Source: Bdellovibrionales bacterium (GTDB lineage: Bacteria; Bdellovibrionota; Bdellovibrionia; Bdellovibrionales; JAUICD01). From it: a DNA stretch of 64,000 nt. Shown piece after piece: positions 4,824 through 56,828 of this stretch. The stretch's first letter is position 1; each line of letters starts with the position of its first letter. The stretch lies in contig CBDANC010000015.1 in assembly GCA_965197425.1 (NCBI GenBank), forward strand, positions 202,704-266,703. Reading direction: 5' to 3'. Under the pieces are notes generated by a model, which was given only the letters and a program-made list of their open reading frames with translations, did not search any database and was not told where the DNA came from. A program made the translations under genes and the position numbers.

Positions 4824-7800
4824 TTAAAATAAACCTGGTATTTAAGATCCAACCCTAATACATTATTGTCTCTTTCATCTTGACTAATCAAGTTTGTGTC
4901 GCCTTCTTCTGGCTCTAATTCTTCATAGTTTCCTGTGATTGACAAATTATTGCTAAGTTTATATTCAACTCTCATATCTGATGTTTGGGAGTTTCCAAGT
5001 CTTCTGCTAAGTATTGTGCTTATTTTATCATTCCACTGTTTTTTTAGTACTATTTTTGGTGTTGATTCAATTACATTTTCTTCACCTGTCTCTTCCATTT
5101 CAGTTGATAGTTTGACATCCACTCCAGTTTTTTCTTTAAGTACCTTATTTAATACATTTTGACTTAGAATACTTGTAGATACATTAAGTGCCTGACTTTG
5201 TATTTTAGTTTCAATGTCAATATTGTCGGTTTCATCAGTTACATCACCAACAGCTAATAAGTTTACTATATCGAAATGGCCCAAATTAGTGTTACTAGTG
5301 AATGATATGTCGGGTTCATCCACATTACCGCGTACATACATTGTTATTGTATGTTCCTTGAATGTGGTAGTAGCTTCTAAATATATGTCGGGGTTTATTT
5401 CGTATCCACCTTTAAAGTCTAGTCTTGCTACATTGACTAAAAACTCATTGTTATTAATTTTTATTATACTATCTCTTTTAAGGTCTACTCTTCCTAGTAA
5501 TTTTGGATAAGCAGGTTGTCCTTTTATATACAGTCTTCCAGTGAAATCTCCCTCTACCATAGAGTTGTTGATAATTGCATCATCATCAAACTCAGATATA
5601 ATATTCATTTGTATAGGCCCTACTAATCTTTCTCTATAAGATGTGGGTAAAAATACATTGCTAGAGTAAAGTTCATTTGTTTCTGACTCATCAAACTCTG
5701 CTACAAATCTAACACTACTGGTATCATAAGTTCCTTCAAATAAAAATGGAAACCATGAACCAGATATTTTGACATTAGCATCTCCTTTGGTCTCCACCCC
5801 CTCTGGTATATTTAGGTTTACATTTTTTAATTGGAGATCAATTTGTGTTGGAAGATTTTTAAGTCCAAGCAATGCAATATTTCCTTTAGCGTGAGCTGTA
5901 CCCGAAGCAAAGTCTGCTGTTGCTTTGTCTATATTAATTTGGTTTTTAGAAAAACTAATCTGACCAAATAAGTTTTCAACAGAGTGAGGAATATCTTTGA
6001 CATCTAAAAATCCATTTCTAATGGATCCATGTCCATTAAGACGAACATCGCCTCTTTTTCCTCTGAAGCTACAAGCTATATCAAGCATTCCTCTGATATT
6101 GTCTAAAAATGGGGTTAAAAATGAAAATAAATCAGGATCAATGCTCCCAGCTAGTGACATATTTAGAAAATTCTTTCTAGAATTATTGGAGCGAAAGATT
6201 AGTCTTTGCCCACTATCATTGCCATTTAACGCTATAACTCCATTGGTCATGCCGTTATCGAAAACAATTTTAGCATTTTTAGCTACAAGTTCTTTTGAGT
6301 TTTTACTAATGTTCATGTCGAATATATCTATTTTTCCGTCTGCATTCCATAGCCAGTCAGATTTTGATTCAACATCTATATCTGTGGTTAGAAAGGAACT
6401 ATGTTGACTGATGTCAGCCCCAAAAACAGAAAGGTAGGGTGTAAAATCCCATCTATTAGCCTGTAAACTTAGTTCAAATGGAAAATCACTAGAATATGGT
6501 ATGTTGGAATATATCTTGAGTGAATTGTCACTTGTGTCCAATGACAAAAATAAATTGTTACTGGTTATTTGCATACCGTAGTCTATGCCAGGCATTGCTT
6601 TATTATAAGATCTTATGTCGTCTATTTTGCCATCTAGTCTTGTTGTGGGGCTTAAAACATGACCTTTCATTGTTAGTCTGGATGTATTTTTTCCCGACAA
6701 ATTTAAGCCTGTCTTTTTTAGAATTTGACTATCCTCTAACATAAAATTGTTGGCAATAGCCACCAAGTCTATAGTTCCATCAGGGCTACCAGTTCCATCT
6801 AACTTTACTAATCCGTTTCTTTTTTTCAATTCAACTTGTTCTGTTTCTACATTTCCTTCAATTGCTTTAATGTTAAAAACTAATTCATCAAAATATTCTC
6901 CGGCTATAACTCCATTTTTTATATTGCTTGTAAGAGTATAGTTTAGGCGATTGAATTGAAGTGGTCCATCTAAATTTATTTTGGCCTGACCTCTTCCAAA
7001 TGCATCAAATGGTAGCTTCACGATTCTGTCAAAAACATTAATAAGCTCTGAAGTTTCAAACTCCAAAACTTCTCCTTCCAATGAGATTGTTTTATCCTCA
7101 AGATCAACCCTAACATCAGCATTGTACTTTGATATATCTATTGACCCATTTATGTTATTAAAAAATAGAGTTCTGTTTGTATAAGAAAAATCCAATTCAG
7201 CATCATTTAACAAATAATCATCCAACCAAAAATCTTTTACTCCCAGATCTATATCAAATGATGCAGTTTTTGAATTTCCTTCAATAGCACCTGATCCTGC
7301 TATAACTCCCTCTAGTTTTAATCCGGCAACATTATTTTTTATAGCATTTAAGTTAAATTCTTCTGCTGCATAGGAAAAGTTAAAACCACTGTCAAAATTT
7401 ATAATGCCATCTGCATCTAGTCTGTTTCCATCGATATCTAATTTGCCGTTTATTTCAATTTTTTCTTTATCTATAGATAAACTGCCAAGCACTTGAGTGT
7501 TTCTTAATGCCACAATAGTTTTCTTTTTGTTATTTACAATAAAATCTGTTAGCACTAATGATCCATCGTTACATATGGTTATAAAGTTGTCGTACCTCAT
7601 CTCACAATCTAGATTGCCCACCACAGAACCTCTTATTGGTGCATTAACTTTCAAGCTCTTCAGAAATGGGTTTAGGCTTAAAGAATGTATATCTAAATTA
7701 AATCTAAGGGTGTCTTTTTGATTGGCATCTATAAAAGTAGTTCTTAGATCTGAGCCTCTATTTTGTAATCTAGCTCTTCGTATGTTCAATTGGTCGTTTA

Positions 7801-48682: not shown

Positions 48683-49500
48683 TTGAAAGGTACACTCATC
48701 TCAAATAGTACACCACACAATTTGTAATTTAAAGCACTAGATTCAAATTCTTTTACACAAGTCCATTCTACACATGTATTACCGCTTAAGACACGGATCT
48801 TACCAGAACTCTTTTTAATAAAATCAAGGGTTTCATATAACCCAATGCCTCTATATTTAATCTCTGATTTATTGTTGAGACTGCTTTCCAATTCATTGAA
48901 TGATTCCAATATAATTTGCTCCTCATTCCTTCCACGATCCTGGCCAGTTCTTTGATAAGATTTTAAGAATCCCACACCCACATCGGAAACTGCGACCTCA
49001 ACAATTCCCTTATCATCGTAAACTTGTGCGTGAGCGTATCCCCATCCTTGATTTCCCTTCGGGCCAGAGTGAAAATAAATATTGTTGGCAATCTCGCCAA
49101 ATATATCTGCTAATTCAGTCACCAATGAACCAGGAGCTAGAGGATTAAAAACAGCATGACATTTGTCTTCTAAAGTGCAGTCGCGGTCATCAACAATTTT
49201 AAGTAAAGGAAAAAATTTTGCAGAATCTTGTTTGTTGTGTGGATATGTGTATCCAGTACCATCAAATAACCCCATTCTCCCTCCATAGTTCTTAACATTC
49301 TCATTTGAGGGCGGAATTATAAAAACCTTCAACTTACAGTCAAATGCCAAATCAATTATACAACGCACTCTTACTAGAACAGCAGGCGTAAAAAATTGTA
49401 TATCTGATAGGTCAATTTTGATACTTGAGTATTTTCCAGAATGAATGTCATATGGCGACGGGCCTGTCTTTGTAATATCTGCATTAATAGTGAGGTTCAC
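48679..49500 (-). CDS. GHKL-superfamily ATPase (RsbW/SpoIIAB-like kinase fold) with a unique N-terminal domain
   Basis: The N-box is EIANNIYFH (ExxxNxxxH), the G1 box is VSDVGVGF (DxGxG) and the G2 box is YRGIGLYE. Confidence 0.65.
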   Translation of the reverse strand: MNLTINADITKTGPSPYDIHSGKYSSIKIDLSDIQFFTPAVLVRVRCIIDLAFDCKLKVFIIPPSNENVKNYGGRMGLFDGTGYTYPHNKQDSAKFFPLLKIVDDRDCTLEDKCHAVFNPLAPGSLVTELADIFGEIANNIYFHSGPKGNQGWGYAHAQVYDDKGIVEVAVSDVGVGFLKSYQRTGQDRGRNEEQIILESFNELESSLNNKSEIKYRGIGLYETLDFIKKSSGKIRVLSGNTCVEWTCVKEFESSALNYKLCGVLFEMSVPFK

Positions 49501-49654
49501 TAACTTATCTCCTGATCATTATTATTATATCAACAACAGTTCTATCCATCCTTCTAAGTATTAATATTCTCAGATACAACTGTTATATTTATCTCGAACC
49601 ATTCTACCAGGTTTTTATGTAAAGGACATATCTCTGTTTTGATCTAGGCTTAGA

Positions 49655-49809
49655 CCCAAAGAACCTTTAAAAAGGCCAGAGAAAATTACTTTTTCTATGT
49701 CTGGGATGAGTCACCAGATGAAGATGTGTACGAGGTAAGGTGGGTCACCACTTTTGATACAACTACCGAGGATGTTGAAAACTTTGTGGCTGCCCTAAGC
49801 CAACTTTAA
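49655..49809 (+). pseudogene. Displaced 3' fragment of ltaE
   Basis: It translates to ...ARENYFFYVWDESPDEDVYEVRWVTTFDTTTEDVENFVAALSQL*, compared with the intact ARENYFFYVWDESPDEDMYEVRWVTCFDTSEEDVKNFVASLKAL*. There is no upstream coding continuation. Confidence 0.85.
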
Positions 49810-49876
49810 ATAGATAAAGCTAAAAAAATATCATCATAAAAAACATCTTTGGTTTTGCAAAAATTTATTAGTTGGT

Positions 49877-49898
49877 GTAAGGCTAATGCTTATGTTGA
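49877..49898 (+). repeat. Left copy of the 22-bp direct repeat
   Basis: It is identical to 56807-56828. Confidence 0.9.
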
Positions 49899-50551
49899 AG
49901 TTCCTAGAACAAAACATAAAAAGAATCTGTTATAGTTTTGATGAGCCATTGGAGCATGTAGTGACAGTTGAATCTGGGTCAAATAGCGTGGAAGAGACCT
50001 TATCTAAGCTTAGGGATCTTATCAATTCAAGTACCCATAAAAGAAAAAAACTGATCGATGATAGAAAGAAGTGGCTAATTGTTTGTAGTGCTATGGATGT
50101 AATCGGTGATACTGAATTGGCAATTAAATCATACGAGGATACTAAAGAAAAAATTGATGATGGCAAAACTTACCTTTTTATTTACGGGTTACTGCAATCA
50201 ATGTATGTGCAACAAGATGCTGTAACTAACATTAGAAAAACGTTAAACGTACCTCCTTTCAATAAAGACGAGGAGGAGAAACTAAAATATATTAGAGAAA
50301 TTCGCAATGATATAATCGGACATCCAACTAAACGAGAGCGAGGAGATGTTAAGAGGTCAAATTTTATAACCAGACGTGGTTTAAGTTTGAAAAGCGTTAC
50401 TCTCATAAAAAGTCACTTCGACAAAGAGTCGGGTGATAAAATAGTTGAAATAAAACCTTTTGATCTAATCCAATGGCAGAGGGAGGTAATTACTAATTTT
50501 TTAAATTTTGTAATTTCTAGTTTAAAAGAACAAATAAGCAAACATAGATGA
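49886..50551 (+). CDS. HEPN-like protein (candidate abortive-infection RNase)
   Basis: 221 aa. The motif IREIRNDIIGH fits the HEPN Rx4-6H signature (R-N-x-x-x-x-H) and resembles the lRN..AH block of Abi-type HEPN proteins. The first four codons (MLML) derive from the duplicated hemJ start. Confidence 0.4.
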   Translation: MLMLKFLEQNIKRICYSFDEPLEHVVTVESGSNSVEETLSKLRDLINSSTHKRKKLIDDRKKWLIVCSAMDVIGDTELAIKSYEDTKEKIDDGKTYLFIYGLLQSMYVQQDAVTNIRKTLNVPPFNKDEEEKLKYIREIRNDIIGHPTKRERGDVKRSNFITRRGLSLKSVTLIKSHFDKESGDKIVEIKPFDLIQWQREVITNFLNFVISSLKEQISKHR

Positions 50552-50631
50552 TGACGGCCTAACAGCTGATTCTTTGTGATCTTTACTATCGAAATCATCT
50601 AAAACTAATAAAGGGGATATAATTTCAAGGT

Positions 50632-51321
50632 TTAAAATTCAACCTCCTCCACCTTTTGATAGAAATTTTCTAGTTCTTTTACATTTATACGAAACGCTGT
50701 TCCATGGTTTCTTGCCCTAGTTTCCTTGTCATGCAATCTTAGATCTAATAACAATTGTCCACTTTGAAATTGGTTTTTAAGGATAGATTGAGTTACTCCT
50801 CCAGATAATAACCTGGCTCTATTAAATAAAAAATATTCAACACCTTTTCTCTCTTCAACCTTTGCCTTAACTAACAAAATATTTTTAACTTTTTTTGTAA
50901 AACGTTTCTCAATTTCTTTCAACTCCCACTTAGCAATTACATTTCCATCTATACTTCTTACAGAGACAAAATCATCTTCAACTAATAAAAAAAGTCCGGT
51001 GCTGTTTGGCTTAAGGCCCATCGTATAATACAAGCCAAGTCTGCCACTATCATCTTTGCTTCCATACTTCCTAGCAGCATCCAAAGGTTTCATTATCCAT
51101 GCATTGCGATTGAAGGTGAACAAGGTTATCAGCCCTGTATGATTTTCCCTATATGCTTTCAACTCTATTTTATCCAAATCTGGAGAGCTTATATTATTTT
51201 CTTTAATTTCAAGTAGAGTTTCTAAAGTATATCCAATACCAGTTGGTCCCTTTCTAAGTGTCCTTAAATATCCCTTTTTTTTTACTTTAGTCAGTTTCTT
51301 TCTTATCTCCTCTAGATTCAT
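50632..51321 (-). CDS. Type II restriction endonuclease, MvaI/BcnI family
   Basis: 229 aa. The blocks KKKGYL...GPTGIGYTLETLLEIKENNISSPDLDKIELKAY...ITLFTF and the C-terminal LDLRLHDK...NHGTAFRI parallel my recollection of BcnI (KNKGYL...GQILERQFGVQENNITLGDLGEFELKG...LTLFHK...DLCIDQD...DRGPHLRI). Confidence 0.7.
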   Translation of the reverse strand: MNLEEIRKKLTKVKKKGYLRTLRKGPTGIGYTLETLLEIKENNISSPDLDKIELKAYRENHTGLITLFTFNRNAWIMKPLDAARKYGSKDDSGRLGLYYTMGLKPNSTGLFLLVEDDFVSVRSIDGNVIAKWELKEIEKRFTKKVKNILLVKAKVEERKGVEYFLFNRARLLSGGVTQSILKNQFQSGQLLLDLRLHDKETRARNHGTAFRINVKELENFYQKVEEVEF

Positions 51322-51328
51322 TTGTACT

Positions 51329-52576
51329 TCACTCTTTGTTGAAAACTACTACATACTCATTGGTCATAGTTTTTGATTTCACCCCAGCTCTATTAGTAGG
51401 GGAATTTTTTGAAGGCATTACTTTGTTATGAATATCTCTGACAAATATTCCTTCAAAATTAAGATCCATACTGTGGAAGAAAGATGCTGTTATTTGATCC
51501 ATAGGTATTTGAAATCCTTTTACTGTCCTATTCCCAACCACAAAACAAACCTTTCCTTTTTTGTTGAGGTTTTTGTCCACATTTCTTACTACATTGTAGT
51601 AGCCATTGAAAAAGTGCAAGACTTCCTCTGCTCTCTTGGGATCCACACTTTTAATGTTATCAACCGTATCCATTAAAATTTCATATTTGCTGAGTTCTCT
51701 ATTTAGTCTACCTTCTTTTCCTAAACCCTGTTTATCAATCTTGTAGCCACTAATATTATTAGCAATTAAGTCGTTTACCCAATCAGCTCCAAAGCTTGTA
51801 TATTGTCCATAAGCAACCGTTGTACTACTATCACCGTAGGGCGGAGAAGTGATAACCAAGTCGTATTTTAAAGGGATTTTATCTTCTGAGTTACCGAATA
51901 TAGGTCTGCTTAGTTTTTTAGGTACACTAGCGCTCAAAAATACTTTTACCATATCTTCAAGATGCAATAAGAATCTTGGAAAAACCTCATTTTTTGTTCT
52001 TGCTATTCTCTCTTTATCAATCCTATATCTTTTGAATTCACCGTTTCTTGTTAAAGATTGATTACGGCATATAAAAGCAAAAATTGTTGTAAAAAAATCC
52101 CTGTACTCGTAAGTTCTGTTTTTCAAAATCCATCTTATCCTGCCAAGATCATTGGCCACTTCCTCAGTATACCAGTAGTCTATATTTGTTATTTTAGGAA
52201 TATCAACTTGAGTATGATCAAAAAGATGATTTGCTCCCTCAATTAAAGTAGCTTTTAAATCCTTGTACTCTCTAAGCAATTTTTCTTTTTGATAGGCTGC
52301 TGTTTTTGCTCTTGCAATGAGAAGTGCCATAGGGTTTATATCAAAGCCTATAGATTCATACCCTTTTATTTTGGATTGGAGTAGGGTCACTCCACTCCCA
52401 CAAAATGGATCAAAAATCACGTTTCCTACTTTTGCATATTTCTCAATAAGAAAATTCACCAACAAAGGATGCAACATAGCAGGATAGGGATGTATTTTGT
52501 GTCTTTCCCTCAAAAGTTGTTCACCATAAAAAGAGAGGTCTTTTTTTTCGGTTCTCTTATAATTATATTCAAACAT
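51329..52576 (-). CDS. DNA methyltransferase, amino-MTase (probably N4-cytosine)
   Basis: Motif I is FDPFCGSGVTLLQ and motif IV is VITSPPYGD. SPPY is typical of N4-cytosine MTases. The gene ends 7 nt upstream of the endonuclease gene. Confidence 0.8.
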   Translation of the reverse strand: MFEYNYKRTEKKDLSFYGEQLLRERHKIHPYPAMLHPLLVNFLIEKYAKVGNVIFDPFCGSGVTLLQSKIKGYESIGFDINPMALLIARAKTAAYQKEKLLREYKDLKATLIEGANHLFDHTQVDIPKITNIDYWYTEEVANDLGRIRWILKNRTYEYRDFFTTIFAFICRNQSLTRNGEFKRYRIDKERIARTKNEVFPRFLLHLEDMVKVFLSASVPKKLSRPIFGNSEDKIPLKYDLVITSPPYGDSSTTVAYGQYTSFGADWVNDLIANNISGYKIDKQGLGKEGRLNRELSKYEILMDTVDNIKSVDPKRAEEVLHFFNGYYNVVRNVDKNLNKKGKVCFVVGNRTVKGFQIPMDQITASFFHSMDLNFEGIFVRDIHNKVMPSKNSPTNRAGVKSKTMTNEYVVVFNKE

Positions 52577-52820
52577 TTTAGTTTAACCAGTTCTCTATAA
52601 GCCAATTATTTTCATAGCATACTTTTTACAAGTATCGCTATTTAGTATGTGGAGTCAATTTTTTTGTAGTAGATACTAGGATAATTCAAACAAAATAGCT
52701 TTCGATGATTTTGATAAACCAAATCTAAAACTCTTTGCTGAGAATTTACTAAGAAATATAGGCAGCGGCTTGAAATATAGCGCAGGGTAAAAAGGATCTT
52801 ACACTATTAGCTTAGGTGCT

Positions 52821-53657
52821 GTGTTTGGCAACAACCTTCCTTTTTGCTTCTTAGAAACAAATCTCTCCTCAAATAAAATCTTGAAATTTATAAAGTTCTT
52901 AGATAGAACTGCTTTCAATATGTCTAATTCAAGCGGTATACTGAAGGATCATAAAAAGAAAGGAACAAAATTAATTCCTCCTTTTCCAGCTAGTTTCCCT
53001 GACATCCGTCAGGTTCCATATATTGACATTACTCTTCCTGAATTGATTTGGTTTGGGACTCTTAATATGAAGTTAGGAATTAGAGGTGCTGCAGATTTGA
53101 TAACAGAAACTGTCAAAGTTCTGCAGAAAAACAAGTGTGAAGTTGTGGTGTTTGCAAGTTCCTTCAGTGAACTAGAGGAATTTCAAAAAAATAAAATTAT
53201 AGAATCTTTAAGAAAAACTTCGATTTTAAATAACATACAAAACACTTTAAATGATTTTATATATTTTTATCCTGAATGCCCTTTGGCATTTTTATTAGAA
53301 GACAAGAAATTACAGTTAACTGATAAGAATTTTATTGAGAACTTTAAAAAGTATTTAAGCAAGCTATATAACAAAAGAAGTAGTGAAGGTATTTTTATGC
53401 AAGCATTAGCTGTATATAAGATGTTTTTGTCGGGAAAACTTAAAGCTGCATCTCATACATCACTTGCTAATTTTCCTGAAGTTGAACATTACCCTAATAC
53501 TCAAATATCCAAGGAAATTGCAGCTTCGATTTGTTGCGTTTTAAATTTATTTTGCGGAACTTGTGTTATTGATAAGGGTTTGCAGGACTGGTCTAAATAT
53601 TTTTGGAATAGATCTCGTCAGATAGAACCTATTGATTTAACTAAAATTGAGTGGTAA
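52821..53657 (+). CDS. Hypothetical protein (island gene, no recognisable motif)
   Basis: The ORF is 278 aa from a GTG start. The alternative ATG at 52920 (MSNSSGILKDH) is more plausible. The sequence looks predominantly helical. Confidence 0.45.
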   Translation: MFGNNLPFCFLETNLSSNKILKFIKFLDRTAFNMSNSSGILKDHKKKGTKLIPPFPASFPDIRQVPYIDITLPELIWFGTLNMKLGIRGAADLITETVKVLQKNKCEVVVFASSFSELEEFQKNKIIESLRKTSILNNIQNTLNDFIYFYPECPLAFLLEDKKLQLTDKNFIENFKKYLSKLYNKRSSEGIFMQALAVYKMFLSGKLKAASHTSLANFPEVEHYPNTQISKEIAASICCVLNLFCGTCVIDKGLQDWSKYFWNRSRQIEPIDLTKIEW

Positions 53658-54480
53658 TTTTAAAATGGAAGAGAGTATAGAACATAAGACGCTCACATCT
53701 TTATTAAATAATATTAAAGAATATAAAAAGATTGTTCGTAAAGAGTTTTCAGAGAGGATGAAATTATCTAGTGTAAATGTAGAGGAAGATGAAAAACGTG
53801 CAGTTGTTGGCGGACTTCTGGCAAGACAAGTTTCACTAGCAACTGAGTTTTGTAAATGCTCAAGTATTTGGACTCTACATATCGCCCCAATAATTCAGCG
53901 TTGTATGATTGATGTACATATAACGCTAGCTTGGATACTAGAAGACCCAGAAAAAAGATGTAAGGAATACATTGAGTATGGGTTAGGCCAAGTAAAGTTG
54001 ATGATCGAACATAGAAAGCTTCAATTGAAGTCAGATGGTGTGGAAGCAGATGACGATCCTGTTTTAAATGCGTATGAGGATTGGTTAAATAATCAGAAGC
54101 ATGAAGCGTTTGTAGAAGTAAATTTAGGAAGATGGTCAAATAAATCTGTAAGAAAAATGGCAGAAGAATCTGACAATTTAGATATATATAATTATATCTA
54201 TACACCATTTTCTGGTTGTGTCCATAGTATGTGGAATCACATTGAAAGGCTTAACTTGACCAGATCAACAAATCCTTTGCATAAAGGTTTACCAATCCCT
54301 GTTGCTTCAAAACTTCCAGTAAGTATGGAGGAGTTGTTTCTAGTAGCAAAATACTTACATAAAACTTTTTTATTATATGATGAAAAAACTGGTTGCAATG
54401 TACCGGCTCCAAGTGCGTATGACTTTTTAAACAAAGCTATTGATAAAACAGCGTCAGATTTAAAAAAATACAACAAATAG
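53647..54480 (+). CDS. Hypothetical protein (island gene, possibly DUF5677-like all-alpha protein)
   Basis: The ORF is 277 aa, and the likely start MEESIEHK at 53665 lies 7 nt after the upstream stop. The blocks LLARQVSLATEF...IIQRCMIDVHITLAWIL and YTPFSGCVHSMWNHIERL recall DUF5677 from memory only. Confidence 0.4.
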   Translation: MSGNFKMEESIEHKTLTSLLNNIKEYKKIVRKEFSERMKLSSVNVEEDEKRAVVGGLLARQVSLATEFCKCSSIWTLHIAPIIQRCMIDVHITLAWILEDPEKRCKEYIEYGLGQVKLMIEHRKLQLKSDGVEADDDPVLNAYEDWLNNQKHEAFVEVNLGRWSNKSVRKMAEESDNLDIYNYIYTPFSGCVHSMWNHIERLNLTRSTNPLHKGLPIPVASKLPVSMEELFLVAKYLHKTFLLYDEKTGCNVPAPSAYDFLNKAIDKTASDLKKYNK

Positions 54481-54694
54481 ACTTACATTTAAATGGTTGT
54501 TTAAAATTGTGCTGATTTAAACATAAAAAAGAAAGCAATCCTAAGGTTGCTCCGTACCTCTCAATCGAAACCCAACCGTAATTAGTTTCACTAATAACAT
54601 ATGGCAAAAAAGAGTTAAAAAATCGAATCAACCTTGCCATGACTAGTTCATCTTTAGGTGAGGCAAAAGAACTAGTAGACGTTGAACTTATTAA

Positions 54695-55255
54695 TCAGCG
54701 TTTCTTTAAAAATCTGCGGATTGCTGAATCACTCACCCTCTGAACCTTGCTCACCGTCATCGGATGTGAACCGAGGGTTTCGATATTATAAATGACTCCT
54801 TCATTTACAAGGTGTCTAATTGCAGGGTTAAGGCGGCGAGGCTTCCAACCATATTGCTCTGCTATTTCTTTTGGTTGAGCTGTAGATTCTTTGTCATTCA
54901 ACATATCTCGAGCAATTCGTTTAGCATCCTCCTTAGCATCCCATCCCATGAAGTACCGGTCAAATTCAATAAACAAAGACTCATCAGTAATAATCCTTTG
55001 GTCAGAGAAGGAGCCAAATGTTCTGTTTATCTTCAAGAAACCTTGTTCTTTAAGTCTGTTGACCGCATCTTCTGTGTCCTCTAAACTCAAACCCGTTTCT
55101 TCCGCAATATTTTTCGCAGCCAATAGTGGATCGTGATTAAACCCGTTTTTTGATTGTTTAAGAAGTAGTTTTATAACTTTTACTTCAGCTTCTGAGTATC
55201 CAGGTATATAATTGTTGTGTGCAACATCTTTATCTACTATAGTTTCCATTTCCAA
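54695..55255 (-). CDS. Hypothetical protein with winged-helix-like segments
   Basis: 186 aa. The segments AEETGLSLEDTEDAVNRLKEQGFLKI and AIRHLVNEGVIYNIE look like wHTH recognition helix and wing. No family was recognised. Confidence 0.35.
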   Translation of the reverse strand: MEMETIVDKDVAHNNYIPGYSEAEVKVIKLLLKQSKNGFNHDPLLAAKNIAEETGLSLEDTEDAVNRLKEQGFLKINRTFGSFSDQRIITDESLFIEFDRYFMGWDAKEDAKRIARDMLNDKESTAQPKEIAEQYGWKPRRLNPAIRHLVNEGVIYNIETLGSHPMTVSKVQRVSDSAIRRFLKKR

Positions 55256-55534
55256 ATAACCTCCCTTTTTGAAGTTTATATTTAAAAAAATAATTTATGT
55301 TTATACCAAGATTCTCTATACCTATACATCATCTACGCACATTCATGAAGGCTCAGAAGGTTGTTTGGCATTTCTCCATCTGCCTCGGTCTTTAAATATT
55401 CATTACCATACCTACTATTAGCTACGACCATTGACACTCTTTGTCCGTTCTGCATAACAAAAAAAGAATATCTATTCGCCTTAATACCACATATTGCTTC
55501 CTCTTGAGAAAGCTTCTAGTTTGTGCTATCACTA

Positions 55535-56557
55535 TTAACCTTCACTTCCAATAGTGGGATTCACATTATTTCTTATGATCTCTAACACTCTTTGAGATGA
55601 AGCTACATTATCCTGTTCGCCTTGAGTAAAGCCAGTATTCTGATGTGAGAAAATGCATTGTGCTGTCTGTAGTAATACAGCACTTTTTGTCGCTTTGTCC
55701 AGACTTGCATCTATAAATTCCTCAAATGTACCCAAGGCATTTTGCCTGTGCTGATTTACCACTAGATTGTGCGACTCAACTCTGTAAATTCTTGCCGACA
55801 AAACAAAGAAAAAAGAAAGCACACTAAACATCAACACTTTTGACAAACTAATTTGAACCAACTTAGAAGTGATGATAGCTTCATTCCAACCCATGGAGTG
55901 ACGTACATTCCAAATAAGAAAAGCAACCAGTACAGCACCAAAACTCCCCGTTACCCAGAGCCATATTTTTTTAGCTTTTTGATGCCTATCTACTTCTTTT
56001 TGGAAATGAAGGATATGTTGAGCCACACCCTCACCAGCAATTTTGTCTCTGGTTTTGCCAAGAATATTACTTAAGGCTGCTTCACTTTCTTCCGCCCTTT
56101 TCTTAAGTTTTTTAATCTCAGCAACATCCTTATCTGCCTGCTGTGTTGTACCTTCACTATTACAAAAGGCAATGATCGGAGCTATTTTCTTAAACCACTC
56201 ATTGTAAGCTCCGTCAATTCGATTAATTATATTATTTCTTTGCTCTAATGGATTACCTTGTTCAGCATTGAAATTCGAAATTTCGTTGAATAAATCCAAC
56301 GCACTCCTTGCATAACCATCAAATTCTACCGCACATGAACTAGTAATGAGGTCGAAATTTACATTTGAGAGTTTGTTAAATAGCTCTGAAATTTGTTCAA
56401 ATAATTTAGCTCCTTCTTGGAAACCTAGCTTTGTTCCAAGATCTTCGGTTCTAACAAGATCCTTTACTTTTATCTTGTCTAGCTCGTCCAAAGATCCCTT
56501 TAAGGAAGACAGAGATTCCTGATGTCTTTGTTTAATATCCTGCACAACACTCCTCAC
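55535..56557 (-). CDS. Coiled-coil protein with two C-terminal-half transmembrane helices (candidate membrane effector)
   Basis: 340 aa with a helical, charged N-terminal region of about 190 aa. TM1 is IWLWVTGSFGAVLVAFLIWNV and TM2 is VLMFSVLSFFFVLSARIY. A conserved-looking block HNLVVNQHRQNALGTFEEF follows. Confidence 0.45.
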   Translation of the reverse strand: MRSVVQDIKQRHQESLSSLKGSLDELDKIKVKDLVRTEDLGTKLGFQEGAKLFEQISELFNKLSNVNFDLITSSCAVEFDGYARSALDLFNEISNFNAEQGNPLEQRNNIINRIDGAYNEWFKKIAPIIAFCNSEGTTQQADKDVAEIKKLKKRAEESEAALSNILGKTRDKIAGEGVAQHILHFQKEVDRHQKAKKIWLWVTGSFGAVLVAFLIWNVRHSMGWNEAIITSKLVQISLSKVLMFSVLSFFFVLSARIYRVESHNLVVNQHRQNALGTFEEFIDASLDKATKSAVLLQTAQCIFSHQNTGFTQGEQDNVASSQRVLEIIRNNVNPTIGSEG

Positions 56558-56806
56558 TTAATTTCTTATCTAGCAGTTAACCAAGCTATTCCAATCGGTA
56601 CTCTGATTAGATATAACTCTCATTTCTTATATAACATTCTATTTAGGAAGGTTAAAAAGACCTGCCTTGTGTCTAACAAGATGCGAATATGTGTGTGATC
56701 CTTAATTAAGTCAACAGTAGTTTAAAAAAAATTGGTAAGTTGCCGTTCTGATCCGCCACGACTCCGATCCAAAAAATTTAGCCTTTGCCAGATCAATGAG
56801 ATTCAG

Positions 56807-56828
56807 GTAAGGCTAATGCTTATGTTGA
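56807..56828 (+). repeat. Right copy of the 22-bp direct repeat (contains the hemJ RBS and start)
   Basis: It is identical to 49877-49898. Confidence 0.9.

Follow-up and report, generated by a model that had tools for sequence, protein, structure and literature searches.

Two adjacent genes on the plus strand of the window, the stretch of 64,000 nucleotides analysed here, encode, as sequence comparison shows, a single DitA-like protein as two separate polypeptides. ORF1 and ORF2 are real conserved proteins rather than chance open reading frames, and their families are almost always found adjacent or fused. DitA belongs to the published Aditi defense system; what is unusual here is the split encoding, together with our finding no DitB. 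The pair is thus a likely variant of a defense system and not a wholly new one. The features on which the analysis rests are as follows.

52920–53657, plus strand: ORF1, 245 aa from an ATG, with an alternative GTG start at 52821.
53665–54480, plus strand: ORF2, 271 aa from an ATG, with an alternative TTG start at 53647.
52577–52919, no strand assigned: divergent intergenic region of 343 bp between the methyltransferase gene (minus strand) and ORF1, defined from the sequence.

The first-pass annotation had described two head-to-tail ORFs on the plus strand, and both prove to be intact and conserved with their coordinates unchanged. Depending on the start codon chosen for ORF2, it allowed a 7-nt gap (ATG at 53665) or an 11-nt overlap (TTG at 53647); both values are correct, being set by the ORF1 stop at 53657. 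Alignments place the N-termini of homologues at the ATG codons at 52920 and 53665, which favors the ATG starts and therefore products of 245 and 271 aa. With ORF1 starting at the ATG at 52920, the divergent intergenic region becomes 52577–52919. The upstream region proposed to be shared with the methyltransferase gene is indeed divergent, but its extent had been given as 52577–52820 and is revised accordingly. The promoter of the pair presumably lies in this region. A consensus promoter scan returned 8 sites against a shuffled mean of 10.3, that is, below chance, and this same scan placed one candidate promoter at 52852–52879; a terminator scan did not rise above chance. The flanking genes are those recognized before, namely an MvaI/BcnI-type endonuclease, an N4/N6 methyltransferase and a protein with two transmembrane segments (2-TM).

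The ORF1 family comprised 1552 cluster representatives at E ≤ 1e-3 in an exhaustive profile search, and ORF2 had 118 relatives at E ≤ 1e-38. Five close relatives of ORF1, at 34–41% identity, were recovered by a word-indexed search. In all three homologues whose surroundings were looked up (on four contigs), an overlapping gene directly follows the ORF1 homologue; this gene is annotated as DUF5677 on three of the four contigs and matches the ORF2 profile on every one. Scanning from the ORF2 side, with one genome per species, yielded 69 loci spanning more than a dozen phyla. Both family HMMs were then applied to every ORF in a set of 74 loci, the window among them, that carry an ORF2-like gene. 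An ORF1-family ORF lies directly upstream of the DUF5677 ORF at 47 of the 74 loci, mostly overlapping it by 4–17 nt. At a further 21 loci both profiles fall in a single ORF, which is full length (507–587 aa) in 19 cases and incomplete in two, one of them (L056) ending at the end of its contig and the other (L072) frameshifted. DUF5677 stands alone at only six loci, each truncated by the end of its contig or showing clear decay. With 47 adjacent and 21 fused loci, the earlier proposal that the pair is one conserved and tightly coupled module holds well, and its homologues are neither mostly single nor found in housekeeping settings. No third conserved gene emerged from all-against-all clustering of neighbors within 4 kb, in which the largest cluster covered five loci.

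Comparison of split and fused forms indicates where the two genes part. Between the end of the ORF1 profile and the start of the ORF2 profile, fused proteins carry a linker of 7–20 mostly acidic residues. This linker matches the break in the window, so the split there falls between domains and no part of the protein is missing. Among the best 150 of the 1552 ORF1-family representatives, 144 are stand-alone proteins of ~235–340 aa and six are fused proteins of ~523–540 aa. Fused forms make up two clades in the ORF2 tree, which therefore requires two changes of state; the tree has no outgroup and gives no direction for them. Pairwise identities of the two domains are correlated (Spearman 0.63 over 56 loci and 1540 pairs), a value that is descriptive only because related loci are not independent. 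Over the same non-independent loci, identity is higher in ORF2 for 99% of the 1540 pairs, the means being 39% for ORF2 and 27% for ORF1. An origin of the two halves by internal duplication was also considered and rejected, as profile–profile comparison of the two families gave a probability of 0.2% and no relation.

Several loci showed combinations of forms worth recording in their own right. A Ciceribacter contig (L017) carries both a split pair (724–2374) and a fused DitA-like gene (5062–6666) ~2.7 kb apart, and the tree places the two in separate clades. Metagenome-assembled genomes (MAGs) labeled Thermoanaerobaculia and Alphaproteobacteria share identical fused proteins (L020 and L022), and near-identical ones are shared between a MAG of Myxococcota and an isolate of Roseovarius (L051 and L054). 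The cause in these cases is a very recent transfer or else an error in binning.

Aditi, composed of DitA and DitB, is a validated anti-phage system in which neither protein has known domains (Millman et al. 2022; 10.1101/2022.05.11.491447), and in a later survey it still could not be assigned to any known domain family. ORF2 matches the PADLOC model of DitA (PDLC03826) at E 1.1e-13, but over profile positions 246–443 of 486 only. Six fused relatives span the model from end to end, beginning at positions 2–6 and finishing at 440–475 of 486 (E 4.5e-18 to 4.7e-31), and the ORF1-family HMM matches the N-terminal half of fused proteins. Three ORF1 relatives scanned singly cover positions 3–235. The DitA model is matched by 34 of 39 ORF1-family members; window ORF1 is one of the five without a match and is linked to DitA through its family. 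By this sequence evidence ORF1 corresponds to a stand-alone N-terminal domain and ORF2 to the C-terminal, DUF5677-like domain of a DitA-like protein. The pair had been put forward as a candidate for an undescribed defense or abortive-infection pair. Its family is not undescribed, since by way of its fused relatives its full length is homologous to DitA. The homology is distant: matches to DitA reach only 47–106 bits, which places the family as a distant sister rather than as canonical DitA, and when the fused proteins were used in a profile search to reach canonical DitA, only the pair's own family came back. The pair and Aditi are further alike in their position in a defense island and in matching no known fold or catalytic motif. 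They differ in that DitA is one polypeptide of about 490 aa, whereas the pair is encoded by two ORFs with a stop codon and 7 nt between them, and in that no DitB was found for the pair.

The likeness of ORF2 to DUF5677, previously suggested from its helical blocks, was correct. ORF2 belongs to this Pfam family (PF18928) with an E-value of 4e-23 and a score of 82.7 bits, the cut-off being 27.1, and covers positions 2–159 of the 166 in the profile. The Pfam model, however, spans residues 46–197 of ORF2 only, and the ORF2 subfamily adds conserved N- and C-terminal extensions. This subfamily also differs in having an obligatory ORF1-type partner, itself outside any Pfam family; the ORF1 sequence had no match in Pfam, PADLOC, NCBIfam or PHROGs.

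DitB was sought with the PADLOC model PDLC03827 (361 positions), which matched nowhere and for which no positive control was detected, so that the outcome should be read as 'not found' and not as 'absent'. With this reservation, no DitB gene was found beside the pair, where Aditi has one, and no match at E ≤ 0.1 was obtained among nine proteins of the island. There was likewise none in the window's own genome (1.6 Mb, 99% complete), in five genomes with fused forms, in a sample of 401 genomes from the window's own phylum (its own genome included), or in 401 sampled genomes of the phylum to which the Rhizobium genome G002 belongs. DitB was also missing from the top 25 families listed for 64 same-strand immediate neighbors; each of these families has a single member apart from some that are unrelated to DitB. 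PADLOC and DefenseFinder rules require DitB, and pairs such as ORF1–ORF2 are consequently missed by both.

AlphaFold2 models built from family alignments are confident and all-helical for both proteins, with pLDDT 90.3 and pTM 0.85 for ORF1 and pLDDT 91.5 and pTM 0.86 for ORF2. Foldseek returned nothing from the PDB at E ≤ 0.001 for either model, every TM-score being below 0.4, and the search of BFVD with the ORF1 model had the same outcome. HMM searches of PDB sequences gave a best E-value of 0.8 for ORF1, which is not meaningful, and nothing for ORF2. Neither the PDB sequence HMMs nor Foldseek thus revealed an activity-defining fold or motif in either protein. Across 62 sequences ORF2 has a dense set of near-invariant polar residues (R54, Q55, R79, D83, R98, H116, Q144, N153, R163, S183, H187, H192, N197, H206 and Y230), together with conserved tryptophans W90 and W157. 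In ORF1, conservation falls mainly on Pro, Trp and Leu, with H11, E41 and S197 in addition. The two window proteins are complete in length, and only two of the near-invariant residues are not preserved in them. From the invariant Arg/His/Asp/Asn set of ORF2 and the faster evolution of ORF1, we infer that ORF2 may form the core of the module and ORF1 its specificity, sensor or regulatory part. The first ~30 residues of ORF1 contain a conserved ILxDHKKxGxxxIPP motif and are modeled with low confidence. A peptide conserved yet poorly modeled suggests that this segment may become ordered only on a partner.

The family has some association with abortive-infection RNases of the HEPN type, such as HEPN_Cthe2314 and AbiV-like enzymes. 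One variant of the module, present on at least 24 contigs, has downstream of its ORF1-family gene a DUF5677 protein that carries HEPN_Cthe2314 at its C-terminus, and HEPN genes neighbor the module in a few loci. At L083 (5261–7584), and also at L084–L086, a 246-aa ORF1-family gene abuts a 527-aa DUF5677–HEPN protein. The HEPN_Cthe2314 domain of the variant has the motif RRNIVH, and the variant lies directly downstream of a type I restriction–modification (R-M) system with a YgjP-like gene. The window proteins differ in having neither a conserved Rx4–6H motif within a HEPN fold nor any sequence or fold match to these enzymes. For ORF2 itself the HEPN reading was rejected: its only R-x5-H (R79-x5-H85) has a variable His, and there was no HEPN family match in Pfam and no fold match.

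The module has been transferred horizontally and is placed among defense genes. In a maximum likelihood tree, two copies from Legionella form the sister group of window ORF2, with support of 100/95. The corresponding Legionella pairs (L005, 4500–9094; L009, 3324–9144) adjoin a gene with ArdC-N, zincin and Toprim domains. On the other side of the pair, L009 has a MobA/VirD2-type relaxase with an LPD7 domain, and L005 has only an LPD7-domain ORF. The ArdC-type gene and the relaxase beside these pairs point to their being cargo of a conjugative element. ORF2 had no match in 50,697 phage records, and ORF1 had one weak match in a plasmid collection, on a conjugative Rhizobium megaplasmid. Elsewhere, immediate neighbors differ from locus to locus and include type I–IV restriction enzymes, PbeA, SoFic, Mokosh, Hhe and bSEFIR as well as TIR, Schlafen-type and HEPN genes. 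A separate observation concerns a Methylomirabilota MAG (L013, 1672–2745), in which a 357-aa ORF2 homologue has at its end a domain resembling the HicB antitoxin (PF15919, E 9e-14); the protein may be a genuine fusion or the result of read-through.

In the window, the setting was originally interpreted as a defense island, and this proves right. Elsewhere, too, defense genes are often neighbors of the module. The island is delimited and subdivided by the following features.

49877–49898, no strand assigned: left copy of a perfect 22-bp direct repeat (GTAAGGCTAATGCTTATGTTGA), part of the context and not of the module.
56807–56828, no strand assigned: right copy of the same repeat, overlapping the start of hemJ.
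48679–49500: cassette gene matching phrog_3364 (E 9e-26).
48401–48682: cassette gene for a DUF4325 STAS-like protein.

The perfect 22-bp repeat bounds a unit of 6.93 kb that holds a 221-aa ORF, the MvaI/BcnI-type R-M pair, ORF1–ORF2, a winged-helix gene and the 2-TM gene. Next to this unit lies the two-gene cassette, bracketed by a 122-nt direct repeat of the 3' end of ltaE (48202–48323 and 49669–49790, 86% identity). In another genome of the same genus (G806), ltaE is followed directly by hemJ, and the whole of 48341–56806 (8.5 kb), cassette included, is missing; the pair is therefore strain-specific accessory DNA. The region of the 22-bp repeat aligns there as a single site (L081, 15181–15231), that is, an empty site. 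No integrase or other recognizable mobility gene was present among the island ORFs scanned. The 221-aa ORF (49886–50551) showed no similarity to the HEPN domain of the module variant. The 2-TM protein of the island (340 aa, 55535–56557, minus strand) did not match the PADLOC DitB model. It has a homologue in a Cyanobacteriota MAG (L066, 1821–2849; 28% identity over 230 aa, E 1.3e-22), situated 2.1 kb upstream of a DitA-like pair in a locus that also contains a second, tandem DUF5677 ORF. Such co-occurrence of a 2-TM homologue with a DitA-like pair was seen at one of 73 loci.

Our preferred reading, which we regard as probable, is that ORF1 and ORF2 are a split DitA-like protein whose products would associate as a heterodimer and act as an anti-phage module independent of DitB. 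The two genes are probably co-transcribed, and in relatives they are often translationally coupled. Their products would form a heterodimer equivalent to DitA, and this heterodimer may constitute a self-contained module able to work without DitB. ORF2, as the DUF5677 component, would supply a catalytic or ligand-binding core by means of its invariant Arg/His/Asp/Asn set. ORF1 would be the specificity or regulatory part, with its conserved N-terminal peptide probably docking onto the partner. Against this reading stands a study in Enterococcus faecalis (PMC12632615), where a lone DUF5677 ORF did not feature among those conferring protection against six phages. The distance of the match to the DitA model and the fact that window ORF1 is linked to it through its family also count against it.

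Other explanations of the pair were weighed against this one. The likeliest of them, although we judge it unlikely, is a toxin–antitoxin-like addiction module that stabilizes the island or a mobile element and has no primary anti-phage role. Such a role would suit a compact cassette whose two genes overlap or abut, closest relatives carried on a Legionella conjugative element, and one ORF2 homologue with a HicB-like antitoxin domain. Against this, about a quarter of the family consists of a single fused polypeptide, which is unexpected for a toxin–antitoxin pair; the two products, at 245 and 271 aa, are large; and no toxin–antitoxin family was matched in Pfam or PADLOC. Moreover, addiction is only partly a rival, as toxin–antitoxin and defense roles overlap.

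Slightly less probable still is that the pair serves a mobile element, contributing an anti-defense or establishment function with conjugative DNA rather than host immunity. This could explain why the Legionella pairs adjoin an ArdC-type anti-restriction/zincin/Toprim gene, with a relaxase gene as well in L009, and why the single plasmid match is to a conjugative Rhizobium megaplasmid. Most loci, however, are without conjugation genes, and their recurrent neighbors are restriction enzymes and other defense genes. The window pair itself lies on a small chromosomal island in which we found no recognizable mobility gene, and its homologue DitA is part of a system shown to defend.

We consider it very improbable that the pair is the decaying, non-functional remnant of a gene that was once fused. 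Fused forms do exist, and frameshifted or truncated copies occur at six loci (L010, L062, L065, L067, L070 and L073). The split form is nevertheless the majority state, has its own start codons and is common to the nearest relatives; stand-alone proteins predominate among the best ORF1-family representatives (144 of 150), and both window proteins retain their full length and all but two near-invariant residues. The idea that ORF1 and ORF2 serve the adjacent MvaI/BcnI-type R-M system as accessory or regulatory subunits, suggested by their divergence from the methyltransferase gene over a common 343-bp region, is largely refuted by the lack of co-occurrence, given that homologues of this R-M pair lie beside the module in none of 73 other loci and neighbors vary, and it is the least credible of all. 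Overall, it is the fused forms, the varied neighbors and the lack of R-M co-occurrence that make the addiction, mobile-element and R-M accessory explanations less likely.

A more far-reaching version of the split-DitA reading is offered tentatively, and we doubt it more than we favor it. Here the pair would be a self-sufficient immune module in which ORF2 is a new enzyme or ligand-binding core and ORF1 a phage sensor, with DitB and HEPN domains as optional add-on effectors. If this were true, the module would comprise two folds without a solved relative, ORF2 would work through its invariant His/Arg/Asp cluster, and the fast-evolving ORF1 would control the DUF5677 protein.

To our knowledge, Aditi is among the few validated defense systems for which no domains, structure or mechanism have been described. 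The family reported here shows DitA to be built of two separable domains, each of which can have its own gene. It also reveals a large lineage seemingly without DitB, which was not found; the N-terminal domain by itself accounts for 1552 representative clusters. The HEPN variant indicates that an RNase domain can be attached to a DitA-like module. We suggest that the N-terminal (ORF1) domain merits a family definition of its own, and the split pair provides a natural dissection of DitA for experiments.
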